From a virus (Duplodnaviria > Heunggongvirae > Uroviricota > Caudoviricetes): DNA of 42,038 nt. Positions within the stretch are counted from its first letter, which is position 1. Each line of letters opens with the position of its first letter. A model generated the notes under the pieces. It was not told where the DNA came from, made no database searches, and saw nothing but the letters and a program-made list of their open reading frames with translations. This document shows positions 18,273-41,540 of this stretch, in pieces. A program made the translations under genes and the position numbers. The stretch is from the IMG/VR virus record IMGVR_UViG_3300045921_000484, positions 153,258-195,295 of that record; one strand, given 5' to 3'.

Positions 18273-18279
18273 TTGGAAT

Positions 18280-18834: not shown

Positions 18835-18869
18835 TCTTTTTCTTATAAAAAGAAAAAAAGATTAATTAG

Positions 18870-19328
18870 ATGACCCAAAGTGCAGATGACTTTAAGAAAC
18901 AAGCTTTAGATAAATGGGTACACATACTTAATTCGATGGGTGTTACTGGTAGTAAATCTGATTGGATGTCTCAATATGTTAATGAAGATTTCCTAAAACA
19001 ACCACAACAAGAATTTCCTTCAATTTTACCAATGTCTATGTCTATTGCAATGGATTTAGTTTCAGTTCAACCTATGAAAGGATCGGGTGGTACCTCAAAA
19101 GAAGAAATGGAAAGAATTAAAGCAGAAATAAAGGCAGAAAATCGTGATAGTAAAATAGACTCTATTATCGAAGATACTGACTATACGGAGAAGAAAATAG
19201 AAGAACATCCTGATTATAAAGGTCCTGAAATGTTATTCTATTTTGATTATAGATACGAAAATTCTACATCATCTTCTATTGATAATGAGGATAATTCAAT
19301 ACTTGGTAAATTAGGTAGAGGATTATGA
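18870..19328 (+). CDS. Truncated major-capsid-protein (gp23-like) N-terminal fragment with inserted helical module
   Basis: LDKWVHIL...FPSILPMSMSIAMDLVSVQPMKGSGG, then a ~45-aa insert, then PEMLFYFDYRY. This matches the gp23-family KW...IA.D..VQPM..PTG..FY pattern as recalled; only 152 aa. Confidence 0.6.
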   Translation: MTQSADDFKKQALDKWVHILNSMGVTGSKSDWMSQYVNEDFLKQPQQEFPSILPMSMSIAMDLVSVQPMKGSGGTSKEEMERIKAEIKAENRDSKIDSIIEDTDYTEKKIEEHPDYKGPEMLFYFDYRYENSTSSSIDNEDNSILGKLGRGL

Positions 19329-19417
19329 TTGGTATTTTTAGAATTTATACAAAAAGGTTCATATTTCTATTTTTTATATTTCAAAAAAAACAAATTAGAA
19401 AAGGTAAAATAAATTGA
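19325..19417 (+). CDS. Possible 30-aa ORF ending QIRKGKIN
   Basis: ATGA overlap with the previous stop; the end resembles the R-x-x-K-I tail motif; may be decayed. Confidence 0.3.
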   Translation: MIGIFRIYTKRFIFLFFIFQKKQIRKGKIN

Positions 19418-19505
19418 ATTTTTTTGGCATAAATAAAAATATTGATACAATAAATAAATACTATAAAAATATGTTTGGGGAATCATTTGGTATAATATAT
19501 ACCAA

Positions 19506-19841
19506 ATGATTAATGTTTATTTAATTTGTGCTGAAATAGATAATAGGAAATTATATAAGATAGGATATACTAGGAGATCAATTGATGATAGAATAAGAGA
19601 GTTTAAAACTGGCAATGCCTCATCTTTTTATGTTATAGATACTTTTCAATCAAAGTGGGGAACAAAAATTGAAGCGAGATTAAAAAAGATATTTAAACAA
19701 AAAAAGATTAATGGTGAGTGGTTTGATTTAAATGATGATGATATAAAGGAGTTTAGAAAATTATCACAATCAATAAATGATATTTTAGAGTTAATATCAT
19801 CAACTAATACTTATGTTTTAGATAGAGGTGGTAGATTTTAA
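19506..19841 (+). CDS. T5orf172/GIY-YIG-like nuclease domain protein
   Basis: VYLI...YKIGYT...RIREFKTGN...GEWF signature; TAATATATA at 19493-19501. Confidence 0.8.
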   Translation: MINVYLICAEIDNRKLYKIGYTRRSIDDRIREFKTGNASSFYVIDTFQSKWGTKIEARLKKIFKQKKINGEWFDLNDDDIKEFRKLSQSINDILELISSTNTYVLDRGGRF

Positions 19842-19874
19842 ATAATAAAATAAAAAATAAAATATAATGTATGT

Positions 19875-20033
19875 GTGAATGAAATTAGTAATAATCAAGT
19901 AAGAATGAAATTTATTATACCTATTGGTAAAAATACTAATAAAAAAGAGGCGGAAATAATCGCTGAATTAATGGATAAGTATAAAGAAGATAATAAAGAT
20001 GGTAAGATAGAAAAAATTAATAAAAATATATGA
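19875..20033 (+). CDS. Mini-ORF resembling a portal (gp20-like) internal segment; absent from the track
   Basis: GTG at 19875 or ATG at 19905: (VNEISNNQVR)MKFIIPIGKNTNKKEAEIIAELMDKYKEDNKDGKIEKINKNI*. The stop overlaps the next ATG (ATGA at 20030). Confidence 0.55.
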   Translation: MNEISNNQVRMKFIIPIGKNTNKKEAEIIAELMDKYKEDNKDGKIEKINKNI

Positions 20034-20302
20034 GTTCAATGAAAGAAATGGCTATTAGGCAATATATCTCTAATATCGACTTCAATTCTGATGATTGGAA
20101 GTTATCAAAAATAAAAGAGGATATGAGAAGATTCTTAGGTGAAGAGCCTGGAATTGAAGTGGTCTATAAAAAAGATGTTATGATTAATGAGTTTTCAGGT
20201 GAGGCGAAAGAGTTTGTTGGTGTTGAAAAAGTTCAGATAGTCTTTACTGATACTGATGATAAATTCAAAAAAGTTGAATTTATTATAGGAGATAAAATTT
20301 AA
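20030..20302 (+). CDS. Hypothetical protein (90 aa)
   Basis: Clean ORF, coupled to the upstream mini-ORF. Confidence 0.7.
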   Translation: MSSMKEMAIRQYISNIDFNSDDWKLSKIKEDMRRFLGEEPGIEVVYKKDVMINEFSGEAKEFVGVEKVQIVFTDTDDKFKKVEFIIGDKI

Positions 20303-20310
20303 ATTTAAAT

Positions 20311-20526
20311 ATGAACTTTGGTAATTATTTTTTAGACTTGAAAAAGATATTAGATATAGAATCAAAAAGTGAAAGAAAAATTATTCACAACTATTATACA
20401 GAAATGATGATTGCTTTCCAAGAAGGAAGAGAAGGGATGGGTAAGTCTATAATGAATACACTAATTAACGCTGGATATTTGATTGATAATAGAGATGATA
20501 AAATTGATAAGATATTAGATGAGTAA
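20311..20526 (+). CDS. Small protein ending in NRDDKIDKILDE
   Basis: 71-aa ORF with the C-terminal R-x-x-K-I-x-x-I-L motif. Confidence 0.7.
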   Translation: MNFGNYFLDLKKILDIESKSERKIIHNYYTEMMIAFQEGREGMGKSIMNTLINAGYLIDNRDDKIDKILDE

Positions 20527-20843
20527 TTGTGAAATAGTTAAAGGAATTGACATAGGTAATAGAGAAAGTTATCTATTATACCTACGAATTGAGACTATAA
20601 AAAAGATATACAATTCTCTCTATATTCCGGATAAATCATATGGTGGTTATAGAAATAGTAAATTCTATGTATTGTAGGAATTAAATATTCTTAATACTTA
20701 GCAGATTTTTTAGATAAAAATATTTAATATTTGGAGTATCTTTCGAGGTTTATATCTGAAGTAATCGATAATAGATTATTCAACATATTTAGCTGATAAG
20801 ATAGATAACTCTATCATAACTTACAATAAATCACAATGGAAAT
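20519..20843 (+). pseudogene. Decayed gene; 52-aa ORF followed by interrupted LADFLDKNI*YLEYL / LADKIDNSIITY segments
   Basis: ATG 20519 to TAG 20677 overlaps the previous stop. Downstream frames give two related LAD-x-x-D-x-x-I-x-Y motifs separated by stops and shifts. Confidence 0.4.
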
Positions 20844-21195
20844 AAAAGTATCAATATTAGATTATTTAGGTAAAATAGAAAAGGGTATACTTGTTCTTGT
20901 TTCTTTTGTTTATCAAGAGAAGTATTACGAGGGTATGTTTTTTTATACCGATGAACAAATACTACTTAATGTTGATGATGATTTTGAAAAAGCTATTGGT
21001 TCTAAAATAGAACAACACAAAGAATATAAAGAAATTCTTAAATATCTAATTAGGAATGTTGTTCCTTGGAGCGAGATGATAACAAGAATTGATGAATTAG
21101 ATTTATCTATTTTTGACCCGAAAACATCCGAGACTGTTTACCTAGCAGGAGATGTTGATTCAGATGATATTACTTTTGGTGGTACTCAATCTTAG
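20836..21195 (+). CDS. Hypothetical protein (119 aa)
   Basis: Clean ORF; no motif recognised. Confidence 0.7.
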   Translation: MEIKVSILDYLGKIEKGILVLVSFVYQEKYYEGMFFYTDEQILLNVDDDFEKAIGSKIEQHKEYKEILKYLIRNVVPWSEMITRIDELDLSIFDPKTSETVYLAGDVDSDDITFGGTQS

Positions 21196-21235
21196 TTTTT
21201 ATTTTTTAATATATAATTCAAATATAATTTATCAT

Positions 21236-21607
21236 ATGAGGTATATTAAAAATTTTTCAGTTTTTGAGTCAAATAAAATTTATGCAAATATCTTAAAAAA
21301 GATAATATCAAATTATGCAAAAGATAAGCCTCTTGACGTTGAGGATGAATCATCGTTATTGGCTATATGTAAAAAGCTGGGAATTGAGCCAACCGATGTT
21401 TATAAAAATAAAATGGTTCCAAAATTTAAAGGAGTTAGCGAATCAAAAGAATCAGGATTATCCAGAAGAACTAAAAATTTCTTAAATAAGATAATTTGTG
21501 ACTATCTTAATGTTGATGAATTTGTGAAAGATAAAGACAAAATAGAAGAATTATTATCGAAATTAGGATTAAATTTTAATGAGGTTGTTGATAAATGTTA
21601 TACTTAG
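21236..21607 (+). CDS. Hypothetical protein with CTS-like leader (MRYIKNFSVFES)
   Basis: The in-frame ATG at 21236 follows TAATATATA at 21207-21215; the track start at 21152 lies inside the previous gene. Confidence 0.7.
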   Translation: MRYIKNFSVFESNKIYANILKKIISNYAKDKPLDVEDESSLLAICKKLGIEPTDVYKNKMVPKFKGVSESKESGLSRRTKNFLNKIICDYLNVDEFVKDKDKIEELLSKLGLNFNEVVDKCYT

Positions 21608-21765
21608 TTTTTTAGAATATCACTATCTGTTTTTTTTACCTTTATTTATCAAAATAAAAATAAGCCTTATCACTAAATCCTAATTTCCAATATCATAATC
21701 TTTAATCATCATTATGATGTATTTACTCAATTGGTTTATTTGTGGTTGAATATTAACTTTTAGTC

Positions 21766-21861
21766 CTAAAGAGATATTTCTCTAAGTATCAATTTTAGTT
21801 TAATCTTCCGGTCCTTTTTATTTTTAAATGATTCGTTAAATTTTACCAAATTTTTAATCAT
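21766..21861 (-). pseudogene. Remnant CTS-like gene (MIKNLVKFNES...)
   Basis: TAATATATA (21874-21866), then ATG 21861 gives MIKNLVKFNESFKNKKDRKIKLKLILREISL*. The -1 frame continues LGLKVNIQPQINQLSKYIIMMIKDYDIGN*. Confidence 0.5.
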
Positions 21862-21872
21862 ATTCTATATAT

Positions 21873-21900
21873 TAAACTTACAAATAAAAAATGAATATAA
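21873..21900 (+). promoter_or_regulatory. Second promoter-like class TAAAC(T/A)(T/A)-N15/16-TA(T/C)AA (representative)
   Basis: Seen at 21873(+), 38565(+), 26776(-) and 3552(-), and more loosely at 27218(-), each upstream of a non-structural gene. Confidence 0.45.
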
Positions 21901-21922
21901 AATAAAAAAATAATAATTATCA

Positions 21923-23668
21923 ATGCTTATAAGTGAATTGGGAATTCGAGGATTTAAATCATATGGGAATAATGAACAAATATTAAGACTAAATACAGAA
22001 AGAGGAGAACTTATTCTTCTTGTTGGAAATAATGGTGCTGGTAAATCATCATTATTAGACTCATTTGATTACACACTTTATGGTAAAGTAAGAGGTCGTA
22101 AGAAAAGATGGGCTACCCTATCAACACTTCCAAACCGAATTAATGGTGAACTACTTAACAGAATTAAATTTACATCAAACGGCACCGAGGTTGAGGTTCG
22201 TAGAGGCATTTCACCTAATGTATTAGAACTAATAGAAAACGGTATCACAAACGAAAGATCTGGTAAATCAAACATCGATGAAAAAATAGAAAAATATATT
22301 GGTATGGATATTGAAACATTCAAATCATTTATATCAATGTCTATAAATGATTTCAAAAACTTTATATCTCTTTCTAATGATGAGAAACAATTGCTATTAG
22401 ATAAACTATTTAATCTTGAAGTTATCAATATATTAAATGGTATTCTTAAAGATATCAATAAGAATAATAAAATAAGAATGGCTTCTCTTGATTCTGAAAT
22501 AAAAACATTAGATGAATCTATTGAATCAATTCAAAGATCTATTGATAAAGCAATTGAAAGAGAAAAGGAAGAAGCTAGATTGGCACTTGAAAGAGAGAAA
22601 GAAGATATACAAGCTGAGATTGACAGATTAACAGAAGAGATGAATTCTAAAAAAGATGAGTATAAGTCTTTGAAGGAGAAAATGGAGAAGATAAAAGAGA
22701 AAGATAATGAATTATCTGATGAACTTGAAAAGGAAAAGAAACAATATATCAATACTCAAAATGATATTAAAAATGTTCAAAAAGAAATTGATCTATATGA
22801 TTCTGGTAAATGTCCAACATGTAAGACTGATTTTACCAATTCAGAGCACTTTGCCAATTTAAGAAGTGCTCTTGTTCAAAAGAGAGACGGATTTAATGCT
22901 ATTAAGTTAGAAATTGAAGAAAATATAAAAAGAGTTAAGGAGAAACAAACTAAGTTAAAAACGATGTCTGAAAAAATTACAGCATCTTTTAATGATTTAA
23001 GTTATTTATTGAAAAATTATAAATCTCAAATTGAGAAACTAATTCAAAAAAAGTCAACCGAGTCAGTTCCGGTTGTTACTAAAACATCGGCTAATATTCA
23101 AGAGTTTCAGAAAACAATTGAAGAGTTGAAAGAGAAGAAAAATTTTAGTTCTGATAATATTGCGCTATGTAAAGATAAAGAACTTTATTACAAAGAACTG
23201 AATAAGATATTTGGTGAAGATGGCGTTAAAAAGTCTATTATTGCTGGTATAATTAAGCCAATTAATCACTTTATCAGCGAAAACATCAAGAAGATGGGAT
23301 TATCATTTGATGTTAGATTGGATGAAACATTCACCGCCGAAATCAGACAATTAGGTTCTGTTATTGAACATGATTCACTTAGCACCGGTGAACAAAAACT
23401 AACAAATATATCAATTCTAATAGCTTATTTGAAGCTTATCAGGACCAAGAAACATATTAATATTTTATTTTTAGATGAGGTATTTTCAAGTGTTGATATT
23501 GATAATATACAACGCATATTGATGTTATTAAAGTCATTCTCTAATGATTATAACATTAATATATTTGTTGTGCATCATGCCGTTCTTAATCAAGAGATGT
23601 TTGATAGAATTTTACTAATTGAGAAAAATGTATTTTCAAGTATATCAGAAGTCAATATGGGGGGTTAA
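21923..23668 (+). CDS. SMC-family ATPase, SbcC/Rad50/T4 gp46-like recombination exonuclease subunit
   Basis: Walker A GNNGAGKS, long coiled coil, zinc hook CPTC, signature LSTGE, Walker B/D-loop LFLDEVFSSVD, H-loop VVHH. Confidence 0.92.
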   Translation: MLISELGIRGFKSYGNNEQILRLNTERGELILLVGNNGAGKSSLLDSFDYTLYGKVRGRKKRWATLSTLPNRINGELLNRIKFTSNGTEVEVRRGISPNVLELIENGITNERSGKSNIDEKIEKYIGMDIETFKSFISMSINDFKNFISLSNDEKQLLLDKLFNLEVINILNGILKDINKNNKIRMASLDSEIKTLDESIESIQRSIDKAIEREKEEARLALEREKEDIQAEIDRLTEEMNSKKDEYKSLKEKMEKIKEKDNELSDELEKEKKQYINTQNDIKNVQKEIDLYDSGKCPTCKTDFTNSEHFANLRSALVQKRDGFNAIKLEIEENIKRVKEKQTKLKTMSEKITASFNDLSYLLKNYKSQIEKLIQKKSTESVPVVTKTSANIQEFQKTIEELKEKKNFSSDNIALCKDKELYYKELNKIFGEDGVKKSIIAGIIKPINHFISENIKKMGLSFDVRLDETFTAEIRQLGSVIEHDSLSTGEQKLTNISILIAYLKLIRTKKHINILFLDEVFSSVDIDNIQRILMLLKSFSNDYNINIFVVHHAVLNQEMFDRILLIEKNVFSSISEVNMGG

Positions 23669-23719
23669 GTAACTACGTGTTTTTAATCTATTTCTAAATG
23701 TAAAAAAAAAACTTTTTTA

Positions 23720-24808
23720 TTAAACGATAAATCTATAATCCTTAATTAAACCTCTTAATTCTTCTTCACTTTTAGGCTTGCCTATTTGGTCTAGAAAATA
23801 GATTAATCTATCAAGAATAATGGAATCCCCTTGAATAATATCCATATCATTAAATAATTCTATTTTATCTTTATCCCTGAATAAATTCCATATTTGATAG
23901 ACTAAATTATTACTACAGTAGAAATCTCCAACAATTGATTCCGGAGCACCTTCTAGTGAAGTTAGGTTGTTATTAGAACACCAGAATTCACTACCAACCC
24001 ATTTAGGACTGCCTTCTAGTGAAGTTAGGTTGTTATAGCAACAGTCAAAATCACCACCAACCGATTTAGGACTGCCTTCTAGTGAAGTTAGGTTGTTATA
24101 GGAACACTCGAAATTACCACTAACCGATTCAGGGCCGCCTTCTAGTGAAGTTAGGTTGTTATTGGAACAGATGAAATCACCACCAACCGATTTAGGGCTC
24201 CCTTCTAGTGAAGTTAGGTTGTTATTGTTGCAGTAGAAATTACCACCAACCGATTTGGGACTGCCTTCTAGTGAAGTTAGATTGTTATTGGAACAGTCGA
24301 AATAATCACCAATTGATTCGGGTGAACCTTCTAGTGAAGTTAGATTGTTATTGGAACAGTCGAAATAACCACCAATCCATTCTGGACTCCCTTCTAGTGA
24401 AATTAGATTGTTATTACGACACTCGAAATAACCACCAACCGATTTAGGACAACCTTCTAGTGAAGTTAGGTTGTTATTGTAACAGTTGAAATCTCCACCA
24501 ACCGATTTAGGACTGCCTTCTAGAGAGGTTAGTTTGTTATTGTCACAGTAGAAATTCCCACCAACCGATTCAGGACATCCTTCTAGAGAGGTTAATTTGT
24601 TATTGTGACAGATGAAATTACCGATAACATTTCTAAATTTAATGGGTAGTTTATCTAATCCTTTACCGGATAGATTGACATCACCATCTACATCAATAGA
24701 TCCATCACTATTTATAGTACAGTTCTCTATACCATATTCCTTACATATCAACTCAATATCTCCCCCGGTAGATTCAAATAATCTATATTGAATTAGGTGT
24801 TTCATCAT
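23720..24808 (-). CDS. LRR-like repeat protein, paralogue A (11 repeats), with CTS-like leader
   Basis: MMKHLIQYRLFES start; 11 copies of F-x-C-x-x-N-x-LTSLEG-x-P; TAATATATA at 24810-24818. Confidence 0.85.
   Translation of the reverse strand: MMKHLIQYRLFESTGGDIELICKEYGIENCTINSDGSIDVDGDVNLSGKGLDKLPIKFRNVIGNFICHNNKLTSLEGCPESVGGNFYCDNNKLTSLEGSPKSVGGDFNCYNNNLTSLEGCPKSVGGYFECRNNNLISLEGSPEWIGGYFDCSNNNLTSLEGSPESIGDYFDCSNNNLTSLEGSPKSVGGNFYCNNNNLTSLEGSPKSVGGDFICSNNNLTSLEGGPESVSGNFECSYNNLTSLEGSPKSVGGDFDCCYNNLTSLEGSPKWVGSEFWCSNNNLTSLEGAPESIVGDFYCSNNLVYQIWNLFRDKDKIELFNDMDIIQGDSIILDRLIYFLDQIGKPKSEEELRGLIKDYRFIV
23925..24620 (-). repeat. Eleven in-frame 63-bp (21-aa) tandem repeats
   Basis: The core CCTTCTAG recurs at 23949, 24012, 24075, 24138, 24201, 24264, 24327, 24390, 24453, 24516 and 24579 (period exactly 63). 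Confidence 0.95.
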
Positions 24809-24815
24809 CTATATA

Positions 24816-25523
24816 TTAAGTTACAAATCTATAACCCTTAATAACCCTTCTTAATTCTTCTTCACTTTTAGGCTTGCCTATTTGGTCTAGAAAATCGATT
24901 AATCTATCAAGAACAATTGAATCCCCTTGGATAATATCCATATCATTAAATAATTCTATTTTATCTTTATCTCTAAATAAATTCCATATCTGTTCTACTG
25001 GATTATATTGACAGTAGAAATCTCCGCCGATTAATTCCGGAGCACCTTCTAGTGAAGTTAGTTTGTTATTGAAACATTTGAAATCTCCACCAACCCATTT
25101 AGGACCACCTTTTAGTGAAGTTAGGTTGTTATTGTAACAGTAGAAATTACCACCAACCGATTTAGGACTCCCTTTTAGTGAAGTTAGGTTGTTATTGTAA
25201 CAGTCGAAATAACCACCAATTGATTCCGGTGCGCCTTCTAGTGAAGTTAGATTGTTATTGGAACAGTAGAAACCATCACCGACACATTTAGGACTGCCTT
25301 CTAGAGAAATTAGTTTGTTATTGTAACAGTCGAAATTACCACTTACGTTTTTAAATTTAAGAGGTAGTTTATATAATTCTTTACCGGATAGATCAACATT
25401 ACCATCCACATCAATAGATCCAGCTTCATTTATAGTAAAATTTTGTATACTATATTTCTCACAGATAGATTCAATATCCTGATTAGACTCAAATAATCTA
25501 TATTTAATTAGGTGTTTCATCAT
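24816..25523 (-). CDS. LRR-like repeat protein, paralogue B (5 repeats), with CTS-like leader
   Basis: MMKHLIKYRLFES start; 5 repeats; the C-terminal ~55 aa are nearly identical to paralogue A; TAATATATA at 25525-25533. Confidence 0.85.
   Translation of the reverse strand: MMKHLIKYRLFESNQDIESICEKYSIQNFTINEAGSIDVDGNVDLSGKELYKLPLKFKNVSGNFDCYNNKLISLEGSPKCVGDGFYCSNNNLTSLEGAPESIGGYFDCYNNNLTSLKGSPKSVGGNFYCYNNNLTSLKGGPKWVGGDFKCFNNKLTSLEGAPELIGGDFYCQYNPVEQIWNLFRDKDKIELFNDMDIIQGDSIVLDRLIDFLDQIGKPKSEEELRRVIKGYRFVT
25010..25340 (-). repeat. Five in-frame 63-bp tandem repeats
   Basis: Cores at 25045, 25108, 25171, 25234 and 25297. Confidence 0.9.
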
Positions 25524-25565
25524 CTATATATTAAATACCAATAATTTAATATATATTAAATAGTC

Positions 25566-25610
25566 TTTATTAAAAATCCATTGAGACTTTCTCAATGGAT
25601 TTTTAATAAA
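25566..25610 (-). terminator. Perfect 21-bp hairpin, probable terminator after the S1 gene
   Basis: TTTATTAAAAATCCATTGAGA-ctt-TCTCAATGGATTTTTAATAAA. Confidence 0.8.
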
Positions 25611-25625
25611 TTATTAATTTTCTTT

Positions 25626-26720: not shown

Positions 26721-26783
26721 ATTTATATTTTTTTAGAAGTTACAAGATGTTGTAATTGAAAAAAATTAGAAGTTTAAGGTTAA

Positions 26784-27185
26784 TTAAAAATTATTATTAA
26801 TTCTTTTAATACCATTTCTAAGCATATAATCTCTTATACGAGCAGCATCTTCATATTTTTCATTTTTGATGCAGTCATTAAGTTTTTCATTTAGATCTTT
26901 AGTGATATCTTCTATACTTTTTTCTTTTGATATTTGTTTTATATCATCTATAAATGATTTGTAAAATTCATCCATTTGAGATATATCAACAAAATATACA
27001 GGAACAACAGATGATGAATTCTCATCTGATAGCTCTTTCAGCTTATCACTCTTTAGTATCTTTTTAATAAAATCCTGATTCAAAGCCGAATTATCGATAA
27101 GATACTTAGCTAAGTGATATGGTCTATTCTTAAACATTTTAAGAAGTAAAACCAAGCTACGATTTAGTTCTTCGTTGTTTTCCAT
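26784..27185 (-). CDS. Protein with C-terminal UVR (UvrB/UvrC coiled-coil) motif
   Basis: LNEKLNDCIKNEKYEDAARIRD. Confidence 0.75.
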   Translation of the reverse strand: MENNEELNRSLVLLLKMFKNRPYHLAKYLIDNSALNQDFIKKILKSDKLKELSDENSSSVVPVYFVDISQMDEFYKSFIDDIKQISKEKSIEDITKDLNEKLNDCIKNEKYEDAARIRDYMLRNGIKRINNNF

Positions 27186-27215
27186 AAATGTTTTATTAAA
27201 AAAATAAAACTAAGT

Positions 27216-32221: not shown

Positions 32222-35200
32222 TATGTAATTGACATGTTTATTGGTGTAGCTACTTTTTTAAGTACTACTTTGCTTCTATTTATATTAAACTTAATTGAGA
32301 ATTGAAAAGGTTTGTTTTCAGATTCATTTTCAACAAAGAATTTAAGTTTCTTTATATGTTTAATGGTACTTGTAGATGAGTTCAAATCAATATATTCATA
32401 ATTTAATCCACCTTGACTTGGATCAAGCGCATTCATTTTGAAGTAGATATTTATAGGTATTACAATCGATTTATCATCACCTCCATTTAAAACTTTTATT
32501 TTATCAGCATTTGTTTCTGTTATATCCTCTAAATTTGGAACAACAGGATGAATTGTGGTTAATAGTTTAGATGTTGAAGCAACACTCACTGTTGTATCAA
32601 TCCATTTCTTAGTATCTAATAGTGATTTATTATTACCAACAAAAGATAATATAGATGTTTCATTATATCCAATATTAAACTCGTTGGATGCTAATACCGA
32701 AGTTATTGAGTTATTATTATTTGCTATAAAATTATTATTTATATTTTCAGATAACTTAGTTACAACAGTATCAGTTACACTTTCGAAGTTAACACTCCAT
32801 ATAAATTGATTATTCAACTGAGTTCTTGTCTGACCAGTTGATGAAGATGATAATAATTCATCCTTGTCATTTACCCAGAATACTTGTGGTGCACCAGCAT
32901 TATAAATATCAGAATTTGAATTATAAGTCCTATTTGATAATAAACCTAGTGGTGAATCAACAGACTTATTTCTAATCTTTAATACAAAGTCTTTTATTAC
33001 ATAAATATTGTTTGCATAAATTCTACCCGCTTGAACTTGTCTAGTGTTAGCAGAACCTATAAATCTTTCTAAGTAATCTTCACATTCTATATTGAATGAT
33101 AATTCAGATCCATTTTGAACAACAAATTCTTGGTTATTCCTAAGTACAATAATTTCAAGCTCACCTTTAGCTCTTTTAATTTTCTCCTCAAGTGATATTA
33201 TTCTGTCTTGAAGACTTTTCAAATAATCAAATAAACTAAGAGATACACCATTAGCATCTTTGAATCCTGATAGAATCTTTGTTGTATCATGATGATAAGT
33301 TACATTATTAACAACTATCGTTCCTGATAAGTGGTTGTCTAAACCTTTAGCTGATAACTCTTGATTCATTCTAACTTTTAGCTCTTCTTTAGTGGCTTCT
33401 TGTAAAATAAAGTCATTTTCATTAACAACATTATTAAGATCATCTGGAAATTCAACTGTAAGAATCTCTGACCAATCAGATTCAACCGGTGATTCTGGCC
33501 AACCAACTTCTGAAATAGATTTAATTCTTATCTCAATTTTTTCATTTGGCTGTATTGGTATATCCAATTGATTGATATTTGGAGTGTCTGCATTTTCAAT
33601 ATCCTCAATCTCCCAAGTATATGTTCCAGTAGATGGATTAAATGTTCTCTTTCTAGCATCAGTTTTGAATTCTATCCAGTTAGAATATGCTGCGTTTTGA
33701 CTAGTTCCTTGATTATTAGAAACTCTGAATGTTTCAGTTGGTGTTTCTCTACCATCTTTAGACAAATATCTATATTGTATTCTAAACTGAACAATCTCTT
33801 GAGGAAATGTACCTCTTGTTACAATAGCTTCAGGCATTGGCCAGAAACCTCTAACTCTAAACTTAGGCTCAACTTTAGTTAGACCAGGTCTTTTAGAGAT
33901 ATCAATTATCTCTTGAGTTATAGATGCTAGTAATTTCGATTTACTTTCTCTCTTTTTACTAAGAGATTCTATTTCTAAGTTGATCTGTTTTTTGTCAGCT
34001 TCGGAAGTGAATCTTAAAACTTTATCCTTTTTATTCTTTGACTCAATAGCATCATTTATCTGAGTAATTTCAGATTTTAATGAATTCATTAAGTTATGCT
34101 TTGTCTTAATTAAATTAGCATCGGGTGTATCAGTTAAATGCTTATTAATCTGGACAACTTTGAAGTTTGATATATTTAAAGTTGGTGGTGTTGGAGTACC
34201 CGCTAATTTATTAGGTGTCTTCTTAGCAACAAGGTCTTTTAAAACTTCACCATAATCATATACATAATCGATATAGTACTGTTCCATAGTTAGACCATTA
34301 TCGTTACTACTAGATGATAATCTAAGATCATTTGTCCAATATCCTGTACCTAAGCTCCAATTTTTAGCAACCAAATGATTATCAGCATTTATTGGTTTGA
34401 TGAAAAGGACATTTCTCTCATTATAACCTATACTAACTCTTATTTTCTTAGTATAAACGATTGGAGAATACATTTTAATAGTACCTATTCCAATTGGAAT
34501 TGGTTGATTACCTTCTATTCTCTCGAATCTAACTCTGTAATTTGATTCAACTGTTGATACCTCAATTACTTTATATCTTGTGCTAGATATTTCAGCATTT
34601 AACATCACTTCATCACCTTGTGATAATTGTCTAACTTCATTTGTTTCAGTTACAAGATAATCAAGTGTATTTAAGTGATACCATAGTTTTCTATTAAGTC
34701 TATCTTCTTCTGTTTTTAAAACAGAGAATACCCCATCATATAATAAAGAATTTGGTTCCAAGTCAAATACTTGTTCGTCATAATTAGGATTTAATGGTTC
34801 AACAACACCAGGTGTTGTTCTGTGCCAAATAACAAAATCATCAATGTTGATGTTTGCTTTTCCTCTAAATTCTTGATTGAAGCTATTTAGAGCTGACTGA
34901 CCAAGTGGTGTTAAATTTCCTGCCTCATCTTTTGCAAAATCAACGATATATCTTCTTACTAAACACTTTCTAACATTGTTTTCTATTTTACCAGTTAGAT
35001 CCAATTCAATAGACAATAGTGGATTTAATAATCCATCAAATATCCAGTTTTTACTTGATTTAAAGCTATCTACAATTTGAAGTTCATTTAGACTAGCAGG
35101 TTCTTTATTCAAATCAACAGTAACAACTTTCTTAAACTTATTAATACCAGCCGCAGTTTGTATAAGAGCTCCATTGCTATTATCAATATTATAAATGGAG

Positions 35201-35418
35201 TTAACATTATTATTTAATCTATCAATTTCATTCTTTAAGAAATTAAATGATGGAAGTGTATATTGTTTCAAAACACCTTCCTCATCAATGATTGATACGT
35301 TTACAGTTGACTCTGTTGTTGTAGAAAGAGTGTTTATTTTAGATAAAATTTCTACTAAATTTTTATTAAATGTTATTATTTGTTCTGCTACTGATGGAAA
35401 TGAGCTTCTTGCTGGCAT
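32221..35418 (-). CDS. Large putative virion protein (1065 aa) with coiled coils and an FN3-like segment
   Basis: Heptad segments, EKIEIRIKSISEVG...SDWSE beta-sandwich end; TAATATATA at 35440-35448. Confidence 0.7.
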   Translation of the reverse strand: MPARSSFPSVAEQIITFNKNLVEILSKINTLSTTTESTVNVSIIDEEGVLKQYTLPSFNFLKNEIDRLNNNVNSIYNIDNSNGALIQTAAGINKFKKVVTVDLNKEPASLNELQIVDSFKSSKNWIFDGLLNPLLSIELDLTGKIENNVRKCLVRRYIVDFAKDEAGNLTPLGQSALNSFNQEFRGKANINIDDFVIWHRTTPGVVEPLNPNYDEQVFDLEPNSLLYDGVFSVLKTEEDRLNRKLWYHLNTLDYLVTETNEVRQLSQGDEVMLNAEISSTRYKVIEVSTVESNYRVRFERIEGNQPIPIGIGTIKMYSPIVYTKKIRVSIGYNERNVLFIKPINADNHLVAKNWSLGTGYWTNDLRLSSSSNDNGLTMEQYYIDYVYDYGEVLKDLVAKKTPNKLAGTPTPPTLNISNFKVVQINKHLTDTPDANLIKTKHNLMNSLKSEITQINDAIESKNKKDKVLRFTSEADKKQINLEIESLSKKRESKSKLLASITQEIIDISKRPGLTKVEPKFRVRGFWPMPEAIVTRGTFPQEIVQFRIQYRYLSKDGRETPTETFRVSNNQGTSQNAAYSNWIEFKTDARKRTFNPSTGTYTWEIEDIENADTPNINQLDIPIQPNEKIEIRIKSISEVGWPESPVESDWSEILTVEFPDDLNNVVNENDFILQEATKEELKVRMNQELSAKGLDNHLSGTIVVNNVTYHHDTTKILSGFKDANGVSLSLFDYLKSLQDRIISLEEKIKRAKGELEIIVLRNNQEFVVQNGSELSFNIECEDYLERFIGSANTRQVQAGRIYANNIYVIKDFVLKIRNKSVDSPLGLLSNRTYNSNSDIYNAGAPQVFWVNDKDELLSSSSTGQTRTQLNNQFIWSVNFESVTDTVVTKLSENINNNFIANNNNSITSVLASNEFNIGYNETSILSFVGNNKSLLDTKKWIDTTVSVASTSKLLTTIHPVVPNLEDITETNADKIKVLNGGDDKSIVIPINIYFKMNALDPSQGGLNYEYIDLNSSTSTIKHIKKLKFFVENESENKPFQFSIKFNINRSKVVLKKVATPINMSIT

Positions 35419-35513
35419 AGTTTAGCTATTAATTTTTCTTATATATTAAATTCTACTCATTTCTTTAGTATTTGTTTTTTTTTATTTTTATATAGGATTG
35501 CTTTCTAATAAAT

Positions 35514-35545
35514 AAAAAAACCCTCAAATTTCTCTGAGGGGTTTT
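35514..35545 (-). terminator. Rho-independent terminator
   Basis: Minus strand CCCTCA-gagaaatt-TGAGGG followed by a T7 run, immediately at the stop of the gene above. Confidence 0.7.
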
Positions 35546-36017
35546 ATGATTCTACTTCAACTACATATTGACCGTGGTAAGTTTTGAAATCCGGTTTTCT
35601 CATAACTGTTATAACAGTTAATTTAAACTCATTATCACCCGGTTCTAATTGACAAACAACATTTATATTATTTGTCTTATTCTTTATAACAAATCTGTTT
35701 GGTTCACCAGCTTTAACGCCCTTTGTTGGATAATCATCTTCATTCTGATAAATATCAAATTTATTCTGCATTAAAGCTATTGTGATTTCTTCTATTGCTA
35801 ATTCTATCGTTTCAATTATATCATTATCTGATATAACTTCATCTTTCATACCACCATGTCTAAATTGTCTATCAGTAGCATGTTGTATCTTTTCAATATC
35901 TATTCTTATCTCAACAGGCTCTTTAAGATATCCAATACTCTTAGGAGCTTTAAATGACATAGCTTTTCTATCAATATACCCACGAGTGAATCTTTCAAAT
36001 GTTCTTAGATGATTCAT
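35544..36017 (-). CDS. CTS-like leader (MNHLRTFE) plus a RelE/DUF4258-like domain
   Basis: ATG 36017 preferred to TTG 36032; contains HA-x-x-R-x-x-R-H...IS..DI and a terminal VVC...VITV pattern. Confidence 0.55.
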   Translation of the reverse strand: MNHLRTFERFTRGYIDRKAMSFKAPKSIGYLKEPVEIRIDIEKIQHATDRQFRHGGMKDEVISDNDIIETIELAIEEITIALMQNKFDIYQNEDDYPTKGVKAGEPNRFVIKNKTNNINVVCQLEPGDNEFKLTVITVMRKPDFKTYHGQYVVEVES

Positions 36018-36274
36018 TAGTAAATTTTCCAATTTTTATATGTATAACATTAGAGATATTTATTATGGTCTTATCGCAAACCTCAACTTTGAGTTCTAAA
36101 ACCTCAGGTTAATTAAACCTGAATTCTTCATATAATTTATATCTCATTATATTATATATTAATAATATAATCTTAGATTTTATATGAATTCGGATAAAGA
36201 AAACACAGACATGCAAATGAAATAAGACCAATTAATGTTGGCATAATTAGTCTTTATCTAACGTGTATTTCATA

Positions 36275-37015
36275 TTAAGAGAGAATTTTTACAACAACTT
36301 CCTCAACAAACTCTTTCATATCCTTTGGATCAATTGTTGATACAGTATCTTTACTGCTGTGACAGTTAAATAACATAGAGAAATCTAAGTAATTATCACC
36401 ATATTTAACACTTGTTTTTTTATCAGTAGGGGGAATCGGGTTTATAACACAAGAATCAATTCCATTTTGTCTGAATATAACTGAGTCATTAAATGGTGTA
36501 TTAACAATCGGTGCATCAGGGAATAATGATTTAATCTTGTCTTGTAGTTTACCTGGGTAATTACCAATAAAGAAATACTTACCACCTTTACCAGTAAGTT
36601 CTAAGTTAAGTACCCATTCAATATCTCCGAAATACCCATCATTTATTTTATCAGATATAGCTTTTGAACCCTTACCTCCAAATTCTTCACCATCTAAAAG
36701 AACAACATGAATATGTGGCATTAGTTTCTTAACCATAATTGCATTGATTACAGAACAAGAATTATCATTAGCATTATCAATATTTGGATTATTAATATCG
36801 TGATGAGCAACAACCATCTTATTGGATGAACCTTTTAGAATAAGGTTATATAGTGTTGTCTCTCCTATTTTGGATTTATCTAATTCATATTTAATTCCTT
36901 CCGAATCAAGTAAAGACATTAAGAATTTAACTCTTGGAGTTGGTTCATTCGGATCATTCTCATAAACTGTTCCAAGGTTTCTTACTTTACAGAAGTCATA
37001 TATCTTTGAATACAT
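36275..37015 (-). CDS. M28-family metallopeptidase
   Basis: VVAHHD, ANDNSCSV, LLDGEEFG, NLELTG and terminal HSSKDT metal-ligand motifs. Confidence 0.85.
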   Translation of the reverse strand: MYSKIYDFCKVRNLGTVYENDPNEPTPRVKFLMSLLDSEGIKYELDKSKIGETTLYNLILKGSSNKMVVAHHDINNPNIDNANDNSCSVINAIMVKKLMPHIHVVLLDGEEFGGKGSKAISDKINDGYFGDIEWVLNLELTGKGGKYFFIGNYPGKLQDKIKSLFPDAPIVNTPFNDSVIFRQNGIDSCVINPIPPTDKKTSVKYGDNYLDFSMLFNCHSSKDTVSTIDPKDMKEFVEEVVVKILS

Positions 37016-37083
37016 ATATTAATCTAAAAAATGTTTTTAAACATCGAATGAGATAAACATCTAAAATGATTTTAGTAAAATCA

Positions 37084-37704
37084 TTATTTATATTTATGCT
37101 CTTCTATTAAATATTTATCAATTATTTTTTGGTCAATTTTATTAACCTGTGTTAGTAAGTCACCAAACACTTTTTTATCAACGTCCTCATAATTGTGAAT
37201 TATATAATCAGCTTTTTGATTTTTATCTAAATCAACCATTTCAACAGACATATTTTGATATATATCAGAAATAAGCATATCAGGATTTAGATATTTACAT
37301 CTTTCCATTCTCTCGGTAGGAGGCGAAAAGACATTTATATTATAATCCATTTTCTTATCCCATCCTCTTTCAAATAAAATTGATGAATGAAATATAGTAT
37401 AGATTGAATGTTTATTTTTAAGTCGAAACTTCTCATATGCCTTGAATAACTCAAATTCTGCTTGATCAACTATTTTATCGAAAGCGCCATATAGAGCTAT
37501 CATTTTTTCATCTAAAAAACCATCATTTTTGAAAATACCTGTACCGATTTTGTTTTTTAGTATATGTCGAATTTCAAAGTTATGATTGATTATAAACTTT
37601 AATATAATATCGGCATGAAATACAGGAATACTAATTTGTTGGAATATCTTAGAAACTCTATCCTTACCTGAATATCTATTACCGGTGAGACCTATTTTTA
37701 CCAT
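37084..37704 (-). CDS. coaE: Dephospho-CoA kinase-like protein
   Basis: KIGLTG..SGK P-loop, IPVFHAD, ILFE..W, and a terminal ADYIIHN typical of CoaE; the P-loop is atypical. Confidence 0.7.
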   Translation of the reverse strand: MVKIGLTGNRYSGKDRVSKIFQQISIPVFHADIILKFIINHNFEIRHILKNKIGTGIFKNDGFLDEKMIALYGAFDKIVDQAEFELFKAYEKFRLKNKHSIYTIFHSSILFERGWDKKMDYNINVFSPPTERMERCKYLNPDMLISDIYQNMSVEMVDLDKNQKADYIIHNYEDVDKKVFGDLLTQVNKIDQKIIDKYLIEEHKYK

Positions 37705-37984
37705 ATATACAAATATATAAAGAATATTTTAACAAAACAAATTTGAAAAATTATAATTTTTATTTACACAAATTGTTTATCATATCAGGTTATAAAAAAT
37801 AAACTATCTAAAATAATAATATTTGTTGATAATGATGAACCGCTTCTATAATAAGAAATTTATTTAATCATTTCAGAAATATCTTAATAGTAAATTTGCT
37901 GAACATTACTTTCAAAAGAAGAAGATATAGAAGGTTAAACATAACGATTAAAAGTAATTAACTTCATTAATAAAAATAATTAAT

Positions 37985-38011
37985 AATTGTGTCCTCAACA
38001 GGGACACAATT
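37985..38011. terminator. Stem-loop in a non-coding region
   Basis: AATTGTGTCC(T)-caaca-(G)GGACACAATT. Confidence 0.5.
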
Positions 38012-38168
38012 TAAGATGTGGAATATCAAACAAACTGTATTAACCGAACTGAGCTGGGCACATCACCGAACTATTTTTTCAAGATGCCAAAGTATTGAGG
38101 AAAAATATTTTACATTTAAAATAGGAAATTTTAATTAATATATACTAAAAAAAATTAACCACGATAAA

Positions 38169-38321
38169 ATGAGAAAACAGCCTCTTTACAACGATAGCGA
38201 TATTGGATATTGCGATCCAGAATGGATGGAAATTGAAAAAGTAATTTCACAAGAAATTATTGAAGAATTAAAATCCATCAATAAAGAGATAATTAAAGAA
38301 GAAAATGTAAAAGATGAATAA
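38169..38321 (+). CDS. Small acidic protein (50 aa) absent from the track
   Basis: MRKQPLYNDSDIGYCDPEWMEIEKVISQEIIEELKSINKEIIKEENVKDE*; TAATATATA at 38136-38144. Confidence 0.55.
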   Translation: MRKQPLYNDSDIGYCDPEWMEIEKVISQEIIEELKSINKEIIKEENVKDE

Positions 38322-38614
38322 ATGAAAGTAGAACTATCTATAATAATAAACCTATTAATATAGAAATCTATCAGATAGATTATTTACAACCTGATGAAAC
38401 TTAGTAATTGTTTCATACTAACATTGATTTTCTCGTTTTTTTTTGATTGACCAAATGATATTTTGATATTATTTCTTTTGAAATTTTTGGTTAAACAGCA
38501 ACCATCGTTTATATAAATATCTAATTTAATAATAGATGAATATAATCACTTTTTTGTTAAAATATAAACTTAATTTTATAAAATTATATAACCATTAAAC
38601 TCTAAAAGATTAAA

Positions 38615-39727
38615 ATGATAGTTAACTTAAAATCACAAACGGATCTTTCTGGATTCTATGTTGTATATGAAGGATCTACAAACCTTGAAAAAAAAGGATG
38701 GTATGGTATATCACATTTAATGGAACACTTAATGTGTAAAAATTTTGAACATCTTCAAGAAGACTTCGATAAAGATGGAATCGATTGGAATGCTTACACA
38801 TCATCAAATGAGATTGTATTTTATATACAAGGTCTTGATGAAAAAGTAAACAAGTGGAAAGGTGAGTTTATGAACCTGCTAGGTCAATTTAATGTAACCA
38901 AAGAACAATTTGAGAACGAAAGAAATATAGTTCTTGAAGAATATATGGATTGTTTCAATGACCAAACACAATCACACATGTTAAATCTTCATCGTAAATT
39001 ATTTAATGACTATGATCCAATTGGATTAAGACAAGATTTAGAAAATCTAAAATATATGGACTGTTTGAGGTATTTCGAATTGCAGTACGCTAATCCTTCT
39101 AAAATTATCAATGTTTCTAAAAATAAGAAATATAAGAATAATAGTATTGACTTTGTAGAAAGAAAATTTGATAAAAAATTAGAGTTTGGAAATCACAAAG
39201 TAACACTTGAGTTAAATAACGATTTCAAAGATAAAACATCAGTTGTTATTTTATCTCCAGTTATTAATGAAGATTTCGCATATGTTCACTTCATAAATGC
39301 TATGTTATCTCTTGGATTGAAATCTCCTTTATATCAGGAAATTCGTGAGAAAAGAGGATTAGTATATTATATACACTGCTACCAATCGAGAATGTGCAAT
39401 CAAGGTATCAATACAATTGCAACACAAACATCTAATAAGAATTATGATGCAGTTATTGAATCAGTGAAGGAAGTGATAACAAATCCTGATAAGTATTTAA
39501 CAAAAGAAAGATTCAATCTTGTTAAAGATTACTATAAGGTAAGAATGAAGAAGGATGAAATACTTCGATATAAAAATGTAAATCAGTGGATTAATCCTCC
39601 TAAATGGGGAGTCTATGATATTATAGACGAAGTTAGCCTTAAAAAGGTAAAGGAAGTTTATAGTAAATACTATGACTTCGATAAATTTTATATATCAAAT
39701 GATAAGAAGGAATTTAAATCTAAATAA
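38615..39727 (+). CDS. M16-family (insulinase-like) zinc peptidase
   Basis: Inverted zincin HLMEH, NAYTS, ERNIVLEE, SPLYQEIREKRGLVY. Confidence 0.9.
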   Translation: MIVNLKSQTDLSGFYVVYEGSTNLEKKGWYGISHLMEHLMCKNFEHLQEDFDKDGIDWNAYTSSNEIVFYIQGLDEKVNKWKGEFMNLLGQFNVTKEQFENERNIVLEEYMDCFNDQTQSHMLNLHRKLFNDYDPIGLRQDLENLKYMDCLRYFELQYANPSKIINVSKNKKYKNNSIDFVERKFDKKLEFGNHKVTLELNNDFKDKTSVVILSPVINEDFAYVHFINAMLSLGLKSPLYQEIREKRGLVYYIHCYQSRMCNQGINTIATQTSNKNYDAVIESVKEVITNPDKYLTKERFNLVKDYYKVRMKKDEILRYKNVNQWINPPKWGVYDIIDEVSLKKVKEVYSKYYDFDKFYISNDKKEFKSK

Positions 39728-39732
39728 AAGTT

Positions 39733-39972
39733 ATGGAAACAAAAAAAACAAAAAAACCAGTAGTTAAGAAGAATCAGGCTAAAACCGAAACAAAAACTAC
39801 TAAAGCTAGTCAGAGTAAAGTTAAAAAAACAAAAGTTCGGCTAAATGTGCTATCTGAACTCAACAAAATCGCTGAGGCTTACGGTCAAGCGATTGATGGT
39901 AAAATCAAATTTAGAAAGGTGAAAGAAATGTTCATCAAATTACACAAGGATTTAAAGAAAACATCTGAGTAA
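39733..39972 (+). CDS. Small Lys-rich protein, possibly nucleic-acid binding
   Basis: 79 aa with a K/T-rich N-terminal tail. Confidence 0.6.
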   Translation: METKKTKKPVVKKNQAKTETKTTKASQSKVKKTKVRLNVLSELNKIAEAYGQAIDGKIKFRKVKEMFIKLHKDLKKTSE

Positions 39973-39993
39973 TTTTTTAATATATAGTGAACG

Positions 39994-40716
39994 ATGCTAA
40001 TACCCTATTTAGGAGAAAAATCAAAGTTTGCTAATTTTATAATACCAAATATTCCCAAAGATATTTCTACTTATGTAGAACCATTCGGAGGAATGTTTGG
40101 TATTTTTTTCTCATTAGATTTTACAAAATATAAAAACGTTAATTTTATCTACAATGACGCTAATGAGTTGAACTATATTTTATTCAAAAGTTTAAAGTCT
40201 AATGATTTTATAGAACTAGTCAAATCAAAAAAAGTGACCAAGGAAGACTATTTAGATTCACTTAAAAATCTTTTCACTGAAAAAGATGAGCATCTTATTG
40301 CCTTAAATTGGTTAATCATACTGACTTGTTCTTCACCTTATGAGATAGGAAAGGATTCCTGGAGAAACAATAGTGAGTTCGAGATATTTAAGATGAAACA
40401 TAGAGCTTATAAATATCACATTGACAAAATATCAGAGATCCTTAATATGGATTATAAAGAAGTGATTAATAAATATGACTCACCTTCAACATTTTTCTAT
40501 ATTGATCCGCCATATATGGGTAAGGAGGAATACTATATCAATCATAATTTCACTAAAGAATCACACTATGAACTAGCAGATATATTAAATAATATACAAG
40601 GTAAGTTCTTATTGAGTTATTATTACTTTGATGGACTAGAAGATCTTTATAAGAACTGCCAAATGGATTCAAAGATTACTCTTATGGGTACAGAATATAT
40701 TATAATGAATTATTAG
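39994..40716 (+). CDS. dam: DNA adenine methyltransferase (D12/Dam class)
   Basis: PYLGEK, YVEPFGG, YND and catalytic YIDPPY; TAATATATA at 39978-39986. Confidence 0.88.
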   Translation: MLIPYLGEKSKFANFIIPNIPKDISTYVEPFGGMFGIFFSLDFTKYKNVNFIYNDANELNYILFKSLKSNDFIELVKSKKVTKEDYLDSLKNLFTEKDEHLIALNWLIILTCSSPYEIGKDSWRNNSEFEIFKMKHRAYKYHIDKISEILNMDYKEVINKYDSPSTFFYIDPPYMGKEEYYINHNFTKESHYELADILNNIQGKFLLSYYYFDGLEDLYKNCQMDSKITLMGTEYIIMNY

Positions 40717-40756
40717 ATTTTGAAAATTATAAGAGTAGGTAAGAGTTTTATCACTA

Positions 40757-41320
40757 CTATTTATATATTTCCTTTACATACTTTATTAGCTTTAATAGAT
40801 TATCGGTGTTATCAACATATTTATCTAATAATGATTCTAGAAATTTTAGTCTACCAACACGGTATGTTTCTTTACCATATGATTTGTATTCGGCATAGAT
40901 TCCTCTCTCCCATTCTAAAAGTTCTTCAAAATCTCTTTCAACAATATTCATATCATATTGATTAAACTTTTTAGATAGCATTGTTTTTGAATGATGATTT
41001 TTTGTATCAAGTATCATTTGTTTAATTTCAAGGATATCAGGATTTGATTTATCGGAACAACACTCCATAAAGAAGTCTGCACTTTTATCTTCATTATCAG
41101 TTTTCATTGGATCATAAACACAGTCATGAAATAAAGCGGTAATTAATAACTTCTCATATTCTTTTTCTGAATATTTTGACTTATCATCATTAATCTGAGA
41201 TATTAAGTCATTAAGGTGATTTAGATTATGGTAATGTCTATGTGATTCATTCCACATAGCTAGTAATGTATTAATATCACATTTGATATTCCACTTATTA
41301 AGAAGTTCTTGTAAATTCAT
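40757..41320 (-). CDS. HD-superfamily phosphohydrolase
   Basis: RHYHNLNHL...ALFHDCVYDP..DNEDKSA; TAATATATA at 41341-41349. Confidence 0.85.
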   Translation of the reverse strand: MNLQELLNKWNIKCDINTLLAMWNESHRHYHNLNHLNDLISQINDDKSKYSEKEYEKLLITALFHDCVYDPMKTDNEDKSADFFMECCSDKSNPDILEIKQMILDTKNHHSKTMLSKKFNQYDMNIVERDFEELLEWERGIYAEYKSYGKETYRVGRLKFLESLLDKYVDNTDNLLKLIKYVKEIYK

Positions 41321-41390
41321 AAAATTATTTCAACTTTAGTTATATATTAAAAATTCTTTCAATTATTTTCTTTCTATCAGAAACTCTAAC

Positions 41391-41540
41391 TTATTTTAGA
41401 TACTCTTTTTGCCATTTGAACATATTTAGACTAATTGACGAATATCCGGATCTTCGAGACTTTAATAAAACAATGTTAGTTTGTTTCATTGTGTAATCAA
41501 CATAAATAATGTTAGTGGAAGGTAAATCTAAACTTTCCAA
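41391..41540 (-). CDS. Mini-ORF with terminase-Walker-A-like motif; absent from the track
   Basis: TTG 41540 or ATG 41489: (LESLDLPSTNIIYVDYT)MKQTNIVLLKSRRSGYSSISLNMFKWQKEYLK*. Confidence 0.45.
   Translation of the reverse strand: MESLDLPSTNIIYVDYTMKQTNIVLLKSRRSGYSSISLNMFKWQKEYLK

Follow-up and report, generated by a model that had tools for sequence, protein, structure and literature searches.

The window analysed here, a stretch of 42,038 nucleotides (nt) of the viral record IMGVR_UViG_3300045921_000484, contains at 18.2-21.2 kb a conserved block of predicted small genes of a T4-related megaphage (relatives 634-642 kb). Within this block, the open reading frames (ORFs) A and B and the broken region C correspond to predicted small proteins, each homologous to a single interaction segment of one of the phage's larger proteins. 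The explanation which we favour, although tentatively, is that they are microProtein-like competitive mimics of virion assembly interfaces, and their common anatomy would be one virion-protein interaction segment joined to a helical tag. An original prediction had taken A, B and C, together with a further ORF, D, for pieces of the gp23-, gp20-, scaffold- and gp17-type proteins, respectively, each of them too small to perform the native function. The head-protein profile and conservation comparisons which it proposed gave matches of A, B and C to the phage's own head proteins, with A also being conserved, and neither result for D.

The window lies at C1:153258-195295 on a genome fragment of 195 kb from an uncultured phage (called G000 where it has to be distinguished; CheckV completeness 34%). 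The nearest public relatives, LR756502 (642 kb) and LR745206 (635 kb), are both named 'uncultured phage' and share ~72% DNA identity with the window over the block. Profile and tblastn comparisons were performed against the fragment itself and these two complete relatives, and the loci L022 (a 94-kb ENA scaffold from a closer relative), L029 and L002 were used for analysis of the block. The T4-type head genes of the phage were located on the same fragment, far outside the window (Table 1). Pfam and PHROG scans of A, B, C and D as they stand in the window gave no match, and the signal of parentage emerges only in comparisons with the phage's own genes and through intact relatives. The gene fragments of the block are just 28-40% identical to their parent genes. 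Ratios of nonsynonymous to synonymous substitution rates (dN/dS) were usable for window-L022 pairs only, most other pairs being saturated (dS >1); in the window-L022 comparison, dS was 0.55-0.82 for A, B and the MUG113 gene lying between them and ~1-2.3 for the remaining genes. Runs that contain window positions 18200-21700 near-completely carry the labels hot springs or microbial mat metagenome; some may derive from the source sample, and no RNA run was listed among them.

The gp23-like character of A was borne out by several comparisons. Its residues 9-71 align to residues 8-111 of the phage's own major capsid protein (MCP), with E 1.5e-5 in a tblastn search of the whole 195 kb and E 8e-8 in the pairwise alignment, and the similarity is strongest at the N-terminal propeptide helix (~50% identity over 28 amino acids, aa). 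A profile built from 31 family members recognised the MCP N-terminus in G000, LR756502 and LR745206 (E 1e-19 to 1e-20, profile positions 5-78), and the MCP residues directly following this match fit profile positions 125-147 as a collinear second piece. Since the two MCP segments are collinear in the profile, A can be read as MCP residues 1 to ~130 interrupted by an insert of ~45 residues; in the window copy, the N-arm block is 5 aa shorter. An intact relative of A matches phrog_138, 'major head protein', with E 3.4e-4. When the profile was compared with solved structures, residues 3-52 and 90-122 of T4 gp23 were matched in a collinear manner but weakly (E 0.16), and these residues comprise the start of the propeptide and the segment called the Gol region. 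A complete HK97-type fold, with E-loop, P and A domains, which would allow shell formation, is absent, as A ends after the first E-loop strand and has no match to Pfam Gp23 (PF07068), in agreement with the notion that it is too small for the native job. Apart from two long helices and a short one, most of the AlphaFold2 (AF2) monomer model of A is disordered. This includes the MCP-like N-arm part, as would be expected if that segment acquired its fold upon binding.

Family A is large. Homologues found in a metagenome protein collection numbered 37 (97-166 aa), and the family comprises 614 representatives after clustering at 50% when E <=1e-3 is required, or 247 at E <=1e-10; among the best 150 of the 614, nearly all are 60-236 aa long. 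Of 50,697 phage genomes on deposit, LR756502 and LR745206 are the only ones with A-type genes. Four further huge genomes of uncultured phages, LR756500, LR756501, LR756503 and LR756504, match only the MCP-like part (~35%, residues 9-85 of A), and these matches were therefore read as the MCP genes there. A search of viral contigs for loci related to A confirmed none. The dN/dS of A against L022 is 0.22, and the copies of A in the three genomes are 47-54% identical, compared with 76-78% for the MCPs, which indicates that A evolves faster. A is clearly a maintained gene under purifying selection.

The window copy of B, thought to be gp20-like, gives a weak signal when taken alone: its residues 1-39 are 36% identical to residues 267-305 of the phage's own portal protein (E 0.007 genome-wide). 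It is a deletion derivative of a gene of 110-113 aa, in which a 16-nt deletion removed the ATG and further stretches of 39 nt and ~117 nt were lost in frame. Evidence for its origin comes from intact relatives. The 113-aa protein of L022 (L022:6092-6433) matches the phage's own portal with E 4.5e-14, exceeds the cut-off of Pfam Portal_T4 (PF07230; 29.5 bits against 22.9, profile positions 218-275 of 433) and also matches phrog_213, and a profile of three B sequences recognises residues 262-335 of the own portal (E 3.7e-14). Through the portal alignment, own residues 267-305 correspond to approximately T4 gp20 273-311, and the span of the B profile to approximately gp20 268-341, which takes in the terminal part of stem helix alpha5 and the greater part of the clip. 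The family covers this stem end and part of the clip only; wing, crown and the full stem, which a dodecameric portal has, are missing. The intact copies (56-67% identity) retain the portal core, and the mini-portal of L022 and its relatives bear, at the position of the clip tip, a Trp-rich basic insert of 12-13 aa (NKKWWQFWKKSG) that the window copy lacks. For the 52 codons of B, dN/dS against L022 was 0.31.

The third piece had been described as scaffold-like and decayed, and both parts of this description hold. At the position of region C, L022 has an intact gene of 108 aa and L029 one of 80 aa. A profile made from these relatives matches four tandem repeats (aa 284-449) of the phage's own protease-scaffold ORF with E 4.8e-47, and it recognises two frames of the remnant in the window (E 1.3e-9 and 0.0077). 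Only the repeats are matched by the C family, and the protease domain (aa 5-267) is not. A probable fourth fragment gene, reported here for the first time, follows A directly and resembles the N-terminus of the contractile tail sheath protein. In relatives, this ORF has 48-72 aa and begins with xSPGVYxxExDIS, and in L022, L029 and L002 its start codon and the stop codon of A share the sequence ATGA, so that it is predicted to be translationally coupled to A there. Alignments of such ORFs with the phage's own 1308-aa sheath run from N-terminus to N-terminus (pairwise E 8.6e-4, 0.009 and 0.059). A profile of the sheath-like ORFs gave no significant match when run against the whole genome, and against solved structures it found only weak sheath matches (3lml and 9ezm, E 0.7-1.5).

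A tail of the form R/K-D-x-K-I-x-x-I had been noticed on two of the pieces, and we confirmed it. When the 195 kb are translated in six frames, its strict version, N[RK]DxKI[DE], is met at three sites, all of them in frame: in A, where the insert carries ENRDSKIDSII, in B, and also in the 71-aa gene at 20311-20526. More broadly, the shared tail is a predicted motif, [R/K]xxKIxxI[L/I/F], found also on other small proteins of the genome, a feature not recognised before this analysis. In the AF2 model of A, it lies within a confidently predicted helix of 25 residues (aa 77-101, pLDDT, i.e. predicted local distance difference test, ~80), and its R, K and I are invariant in the 31 family A members. 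The codons of the motif differ synonymously (CGT, AGA or CGC for R; ATA, ATC or ATT for I), which indicates that the constraint acts on the protein and not on DNA. In the sheath-like ORFs, a related IRKxKIxRI[L/F] forms an insert that the sheath itself does not have; a variant of the motif is present in the C family, and the tail of B is less regular among its few relatives. A looser pattern has 12 sites in the genome, of which ~8 are apparently genuine, several at C-termini of other small proteins. One protein ending in it is a paralogue of the C-terminal half of MCP, which matches MCP aa 440-533 (blastp E 1.8e-7; Pfam Gp23 E 1.4e-3, below the cut-off). These endings suggest a genome-wide C-terminal tag with a putative receptor. 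The motif is thus best described as a putative tag of general use in this phage; it is enriched on virion-protein pieces, yet neither confined to them nor specific to decoys.

Such a distribution, with the motif found on several small proteins of unrelated kinds as expected of a cargo signal, together with the fact that the A-MCP similarity peaks in the propeptide helix, could also be reconciled with a role of the small proteins as cargo or core components of the prohead. The propeptide of A would then be a capsid-targeting sequence, C would co-assemble with the scaffold repeats, the motif would serve as a packaging tag, and the products would be processed by the prohead protease. T4 and giant phages such as SPN3US do target proteins into proheads by means of N-terminal propeptides removed by the protease (PMC5694885), and A would suit this reading. 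Nevertheless, we find this possibility quite improbable, as in many members of family A the sequence begins with the N-arm block and has no propeptide helix, it is hard to see where inside a head the pieces of portal clip and sheath would belong, and no pattern of protease sites is consistently conserved in the family A alignment.

Competitive mimicry, the explanation favoured here, has its closest formal parallel outside phages. MicroProteins of plants and animals, like LITTLE ZIPPER and the Id proteins, retain one interaction segment and form non-productive complexes with partners of the parent protein. The anatomy of A, B and C is alike; however, known microProteins regulate eukaryotic transcription factors, whereas here the parents are phage virion proteins, the pieces share an additional motif, and their dominant-negative action is hypothetical. 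The closest viral analogue is the CpmB protein of SaPI1, a mimic of the helix at the C-terminus of the helper phage scaffold that binds the capsid. In both cases, a short element of an assembly interface would be reused by a small protein to redirect capsid assembly or compete in it. SaPI1, however, is a satellite parasitising its helper, while here the phage itself carries the putative mimics, and four different virion proteins would be covered. By presenting a single virion-protein interface, each mini-protein would occupy whatever normally binds the copied segment. For A, this would be the core or the protease of the prohead, or else a host protein that binds the Gol region (EF-Tu, for example); for B, terminase or the neck; and for C, the scaffold. 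The shared motif would dock the mini-proteins on a common putative hub, and the benefit might lie in timing of the phage's own assembly, in interference with co-infecting relatives, or in blunting of host sensors. A more specific version, namely that huge phages encode a set of motif-tagged microProteins, diverged copies of the capsid N-arm/Gol segment, portal clip, scaffold repeat or sheath N-terminal strand, which act in trans, either dominant-negatively on co-infecting relatives or as blockers of host sensors, with the motif helix recruiting them to one hub, appears doubtful to us.

Precedents for activity of isolated segments are provided by the T4 clip peptide that blocks packaging and by the Gol segment that binds EF-Tu. 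The clip of T4 gp20 (residues 279-358) is the attachment site of gp17 and of the neck, and a peptide of gp20 residues 288-311 binds gp17 and inhibits packaging in vitro (PMC4493910). B covers the homologous segment of the portal; the T4 peptide is a laboratory reagent (PMC4493910), whereas B is a natural gene, and intact B copies differ from the peptide by the insert at the clip tip, which in T4 contacts the terminase. The Gol region comprises 29 residues, is the most conserved part of gp23 and binds EF-Tu (PMC3014915). A keeps the homologous segment as a free-standing protein, while in T4 this region is a part of full-length gp23 and triggers host suicide (PMC3014915); a stand-alone Gol-like gene is not known to be described. 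Literature searches likewise brought up no natural phage genes for isolated pieces of the MCP N-arm, the portal clip or the scaffold repeats. Duplicated and diverged head genes are retained in large myoviruses, as exemplified by T4 gp24 versus gp23 and by the prohead-protease paralogue of SPN3US (PMC5694885), but gp24 and the SPN3US paralogue retain the whole fold, whereas the mini-genes described here retain 40-130 residues.

As A retains exactly that segment of gp23 which is sensed by Lit-type exclusion, the pieces could instead be immune decoys, as the original prediction had supposed, i.e. fragments that bind host sensors of virion proteins (Lit/Gol-, CapRel- or Avs-type) and titrate or block them without triggering a response. 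MCP, portal and several tail proteins are among the reported targets of sensing by Avs families (bioRxiv 10.64898/2026.01.04.697583), and the faster evolution of A than of MCP, along with the companions that come and go, is typical of accessory genes engaged in an arms race. The idea is weakened by the finding that the free Gol peptide in T4 activates Lit rather than blocking it (PMC3014915), and by the report that Avs sensors read whole core folds (bioRxiv 10.64898/2026.01.04.697583), which fragments of 50-150 aa cannot reproduce. The motif, moreover, is common to unrelated proteins. In our opinion, decoys are a distinctly improbable explanation.

Several observations speak against the proposed mimicry of assembly interfaces. 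No genome-specific co-variation of A with its own MCP was seen in the three genomes compared. Presence of the motif on unrelated small proteins, such as one that is TK/AAA-like, means that it need not be related to virion mimicry. The 90-aa and 119-aa genes of the block have no paralogue in the two complete relatives of 0.63-0.64 Mb, and no parent of which they could be fragments was detectable. C and the sheath-like gene are pseudogenes in this genome, B is short of its ATG and of ~60 codons here, and the B family is tiny (5 clusters). B, C and the sheath-like gene have a patchy distribution in related loci and are decaying in the window, and they are probably to be regarded as lineage-restricted and dispensable in this genome. 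In addition, B is found only beside the MUG113 gene (all 4 loci with B have it, and 3 loci have the MUG113 gene and no B), which would fit hitch-hiking with a mobile endonuclease.

The broken state of B, C and the sheath-like gene, the small size of the B family, and the MUG113/GIY-YIG gene situated between A and B would also be consistent with an origin of the pieces as recombination by-products. In this scenario, parts of head and tail genes were copied to a hotspot, either driven by homing endonucleases or illegitimately, and would be mostly neutral and in the process of being lost, with only A co-opted later; the abundance of homing endonucleases in the head module and the TerL (large terminase) region of this genome, plus an intein, is in its favour. 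The original prediction had likewise held neutral debris of recombination to be the alternative to function. For A, debris is ruled out, as the family is too widespread and too constrained, the synonymous codon differences in its motif included, while for B, C and the sheath-like gene this origin is still plausible. Taken as an account of all the pieces, it seems rather unlikely to us. Their low identity to the parents implies that the fragments are old, yet they are open in relatives; intact copies of B have kept the portal core; and the pieces in A and in the sheath-like ORFs carry the shared motif as an insert missing from the parent proteins.

Should the pieces prove to mimic interfaces, regulators or inhibitors of microProtein type that act on capsid assembly and DNA packaging would for the first time be known as natural products of phage genes. 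Family A by itself, which comprises hundreds of metagenomic clusters but corresponds to no family in Pfam or PHROG, would offer a stand-alone handle on the long-puzzling Gol segment of gp23 and on the general interaction with EF-Tu proposed for it. The shared motif would be a tag, new to science, that many megaphage small proteins bear. Even if A alone were functional, the block would illustrate how very large phages capture parts of structural genes and make new small genes out of them.

Table 1. Positions of the features discussed (window numbering; positions preceded by C1 are those of the 195-kb fragment)
Feature	Position	Strand	Remarks
ORF A, mini-MCP, 152 aa	18870..19328	+	MCP propeptide helix, N-arm ('Gol-region') segment and first E-loop strand; ~45-aa helical insert
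ORF B, shortened mini-portal, 52 aa	19875..20033	+	end of stem helix and start of clip; ends in NKDGKIEKINKNI; stop overlaps next start
Region C, pseudogene of 108-aa gene	20519..20843	+	repeat unit of prohead protease-scaffold protein; broken by stops and frameshifts
Sheath-N-terminus-like mini-gene remnant	19316..19440	+	start lost, 1-nt frameshift, 43-nt deletion
ORF D, claimed gp17-like piece	41391..41540	-	TTG start; not part of the system
Gene o109	18283..18834	+	C-terminal 108 aa kept in all related loci; MKYLRKFNE-type leader, also present elsewhere in this genome
Hairpin, perfect 14-bp stem	19481..19511	+	overlaps MUG113 start codon; conserved in L022; loop and stem hold TAATATATA box
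MUG113/T5orf172 gene, stand-alone, 111 aa	19506..19841	+	GIY-YIG superfamily; MUG113 E 3.6e-18, T5orf172 E 1.8e-11
90-aa core gene	20030..20302	+	>1200 metagenome clusters at >=75% identity; dN/dS 0.04 vs L022
71-aa gene	20311..20526	+	ends in shared motif (NRDDKIDKILDE); dN/dS 0.12 vs L022
119-aa conserved gene	20836..21195	+	closes block ahead of SbcC-like gene
MCP C-terminal-half paralogue, 253 aa	C1:1140-1901	+	ends in KNRDSKINNILNEEK, same motif as ORF A
Proteins ending in R[D/E]xKIxxI[L/F], outside window	C1:50806-51030, 75707-76249, 82515-83003, 86527-86757		74, 180, 162 and 76 aa; the 162-aa protein is TK/AAA-like
MCP	C1:4622-6313	-	Pfam Gp23 E 2.5e-29
Protease-scaffold ORF, 692 aa	C1:6396-8474	-	residues 5-267 are head maturation protease phrog_207; remainder repeat-rich
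Portal	C1:9235-10944	-	Portal_T4 E 2.3e-61
Split large terminase	C1:31210-34970		
Tail sheath, 1308 aa	C1:41874-45800		

In related loci, the order of the block is as follows: a 319-aa gene, variable genes, a 109-aa gene (o109), A, the 48-72-aa sheath-like ORF, the MUG113 gene, B, the 90-aa gene, the 71-aa gene and/or C, a gene of 102-122 aa, and SbcC; of these, the MUG113 gene, B, and the 71-aa gene and/or C come and go. The window copy of o109 has an extra, window-specific insert of ~75 aa with a motif-like DKIDDI, and its dN/dS against L022 is 0.12; no similarity of its product to structural proteins was detected. Upstream of it, at 18154-18270 of the window, just the last ~39 codons are left of a 246-aa gene that is present in L022. 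The 90-aa gene, among the most conserved small genes encountered here, is named 'threonine aldolase' in some JGI records, which is implausible considering its size. Leads from the ESM Atlas which might make the 90-aa and 119-aa genes fragments as well (retropepsin-like; a T4 neck-protein fragment cluster at 0.87) were below the threshold and were not counted. For the 71-aa gene, no parent protein was detected.

The MUG113 gene occurs in some of the related loci, is absent from L029, and has dN/dS of 0.10 against L022. A nuclease domain combined with patchy presence at one site makes it a candidate free-standing homing endonuclease; a Pfam scan detected no DNA-binding domain in its 111 aa. The hairpin at its start recalls the hairpin-gated late translation of homing endonucleases of T4. 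A box of the TAATATATA type also precedes the genes for MCP, sheath, portal and protease, at a distance of 25-35 nt. In a scan for sigma-70 promoters, sites were no commoner than in shuffled sequence.

ORF D, which had been presumed to be a gp17-like piece, is in all probability a chance ORF and, as such, is set apart from the others. Compared with both parts of TerL, the N-terminal exon and the C-terminal part, it gave best pairwise E values of 0.18-0.65, and no counterpart was found in syntenic regions of relatives, though both flanking genes are 42-76% conserved there. A further candidate, a 59-aa ORF at C1:66322-66498 resembling the MCP spine helix, was rejected as well, since its E value of 7.9e-4 is at chance level after 2072 queries.

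The TerL gene itself is fractured. Its N-terminal ORF stops right after the Walker A sequence 'SRQVGK' and runs into a Cys-led, intein-like start; this is followed by a 323-aa endonuclease-like ORF and by a 740-aa ORF with a Hint-like segment, which ends in 'SHN|T' before the remaining part of TerL. The arrangement looks like a split or interrupted intein accompanied by a free-standing homing endonuclease. Similarly, the portal gene in the head module is flanked by two genes that, according to PHROG matches, are homing-endonuclease-like (C1:8617-9015 and C1:12331-13920).

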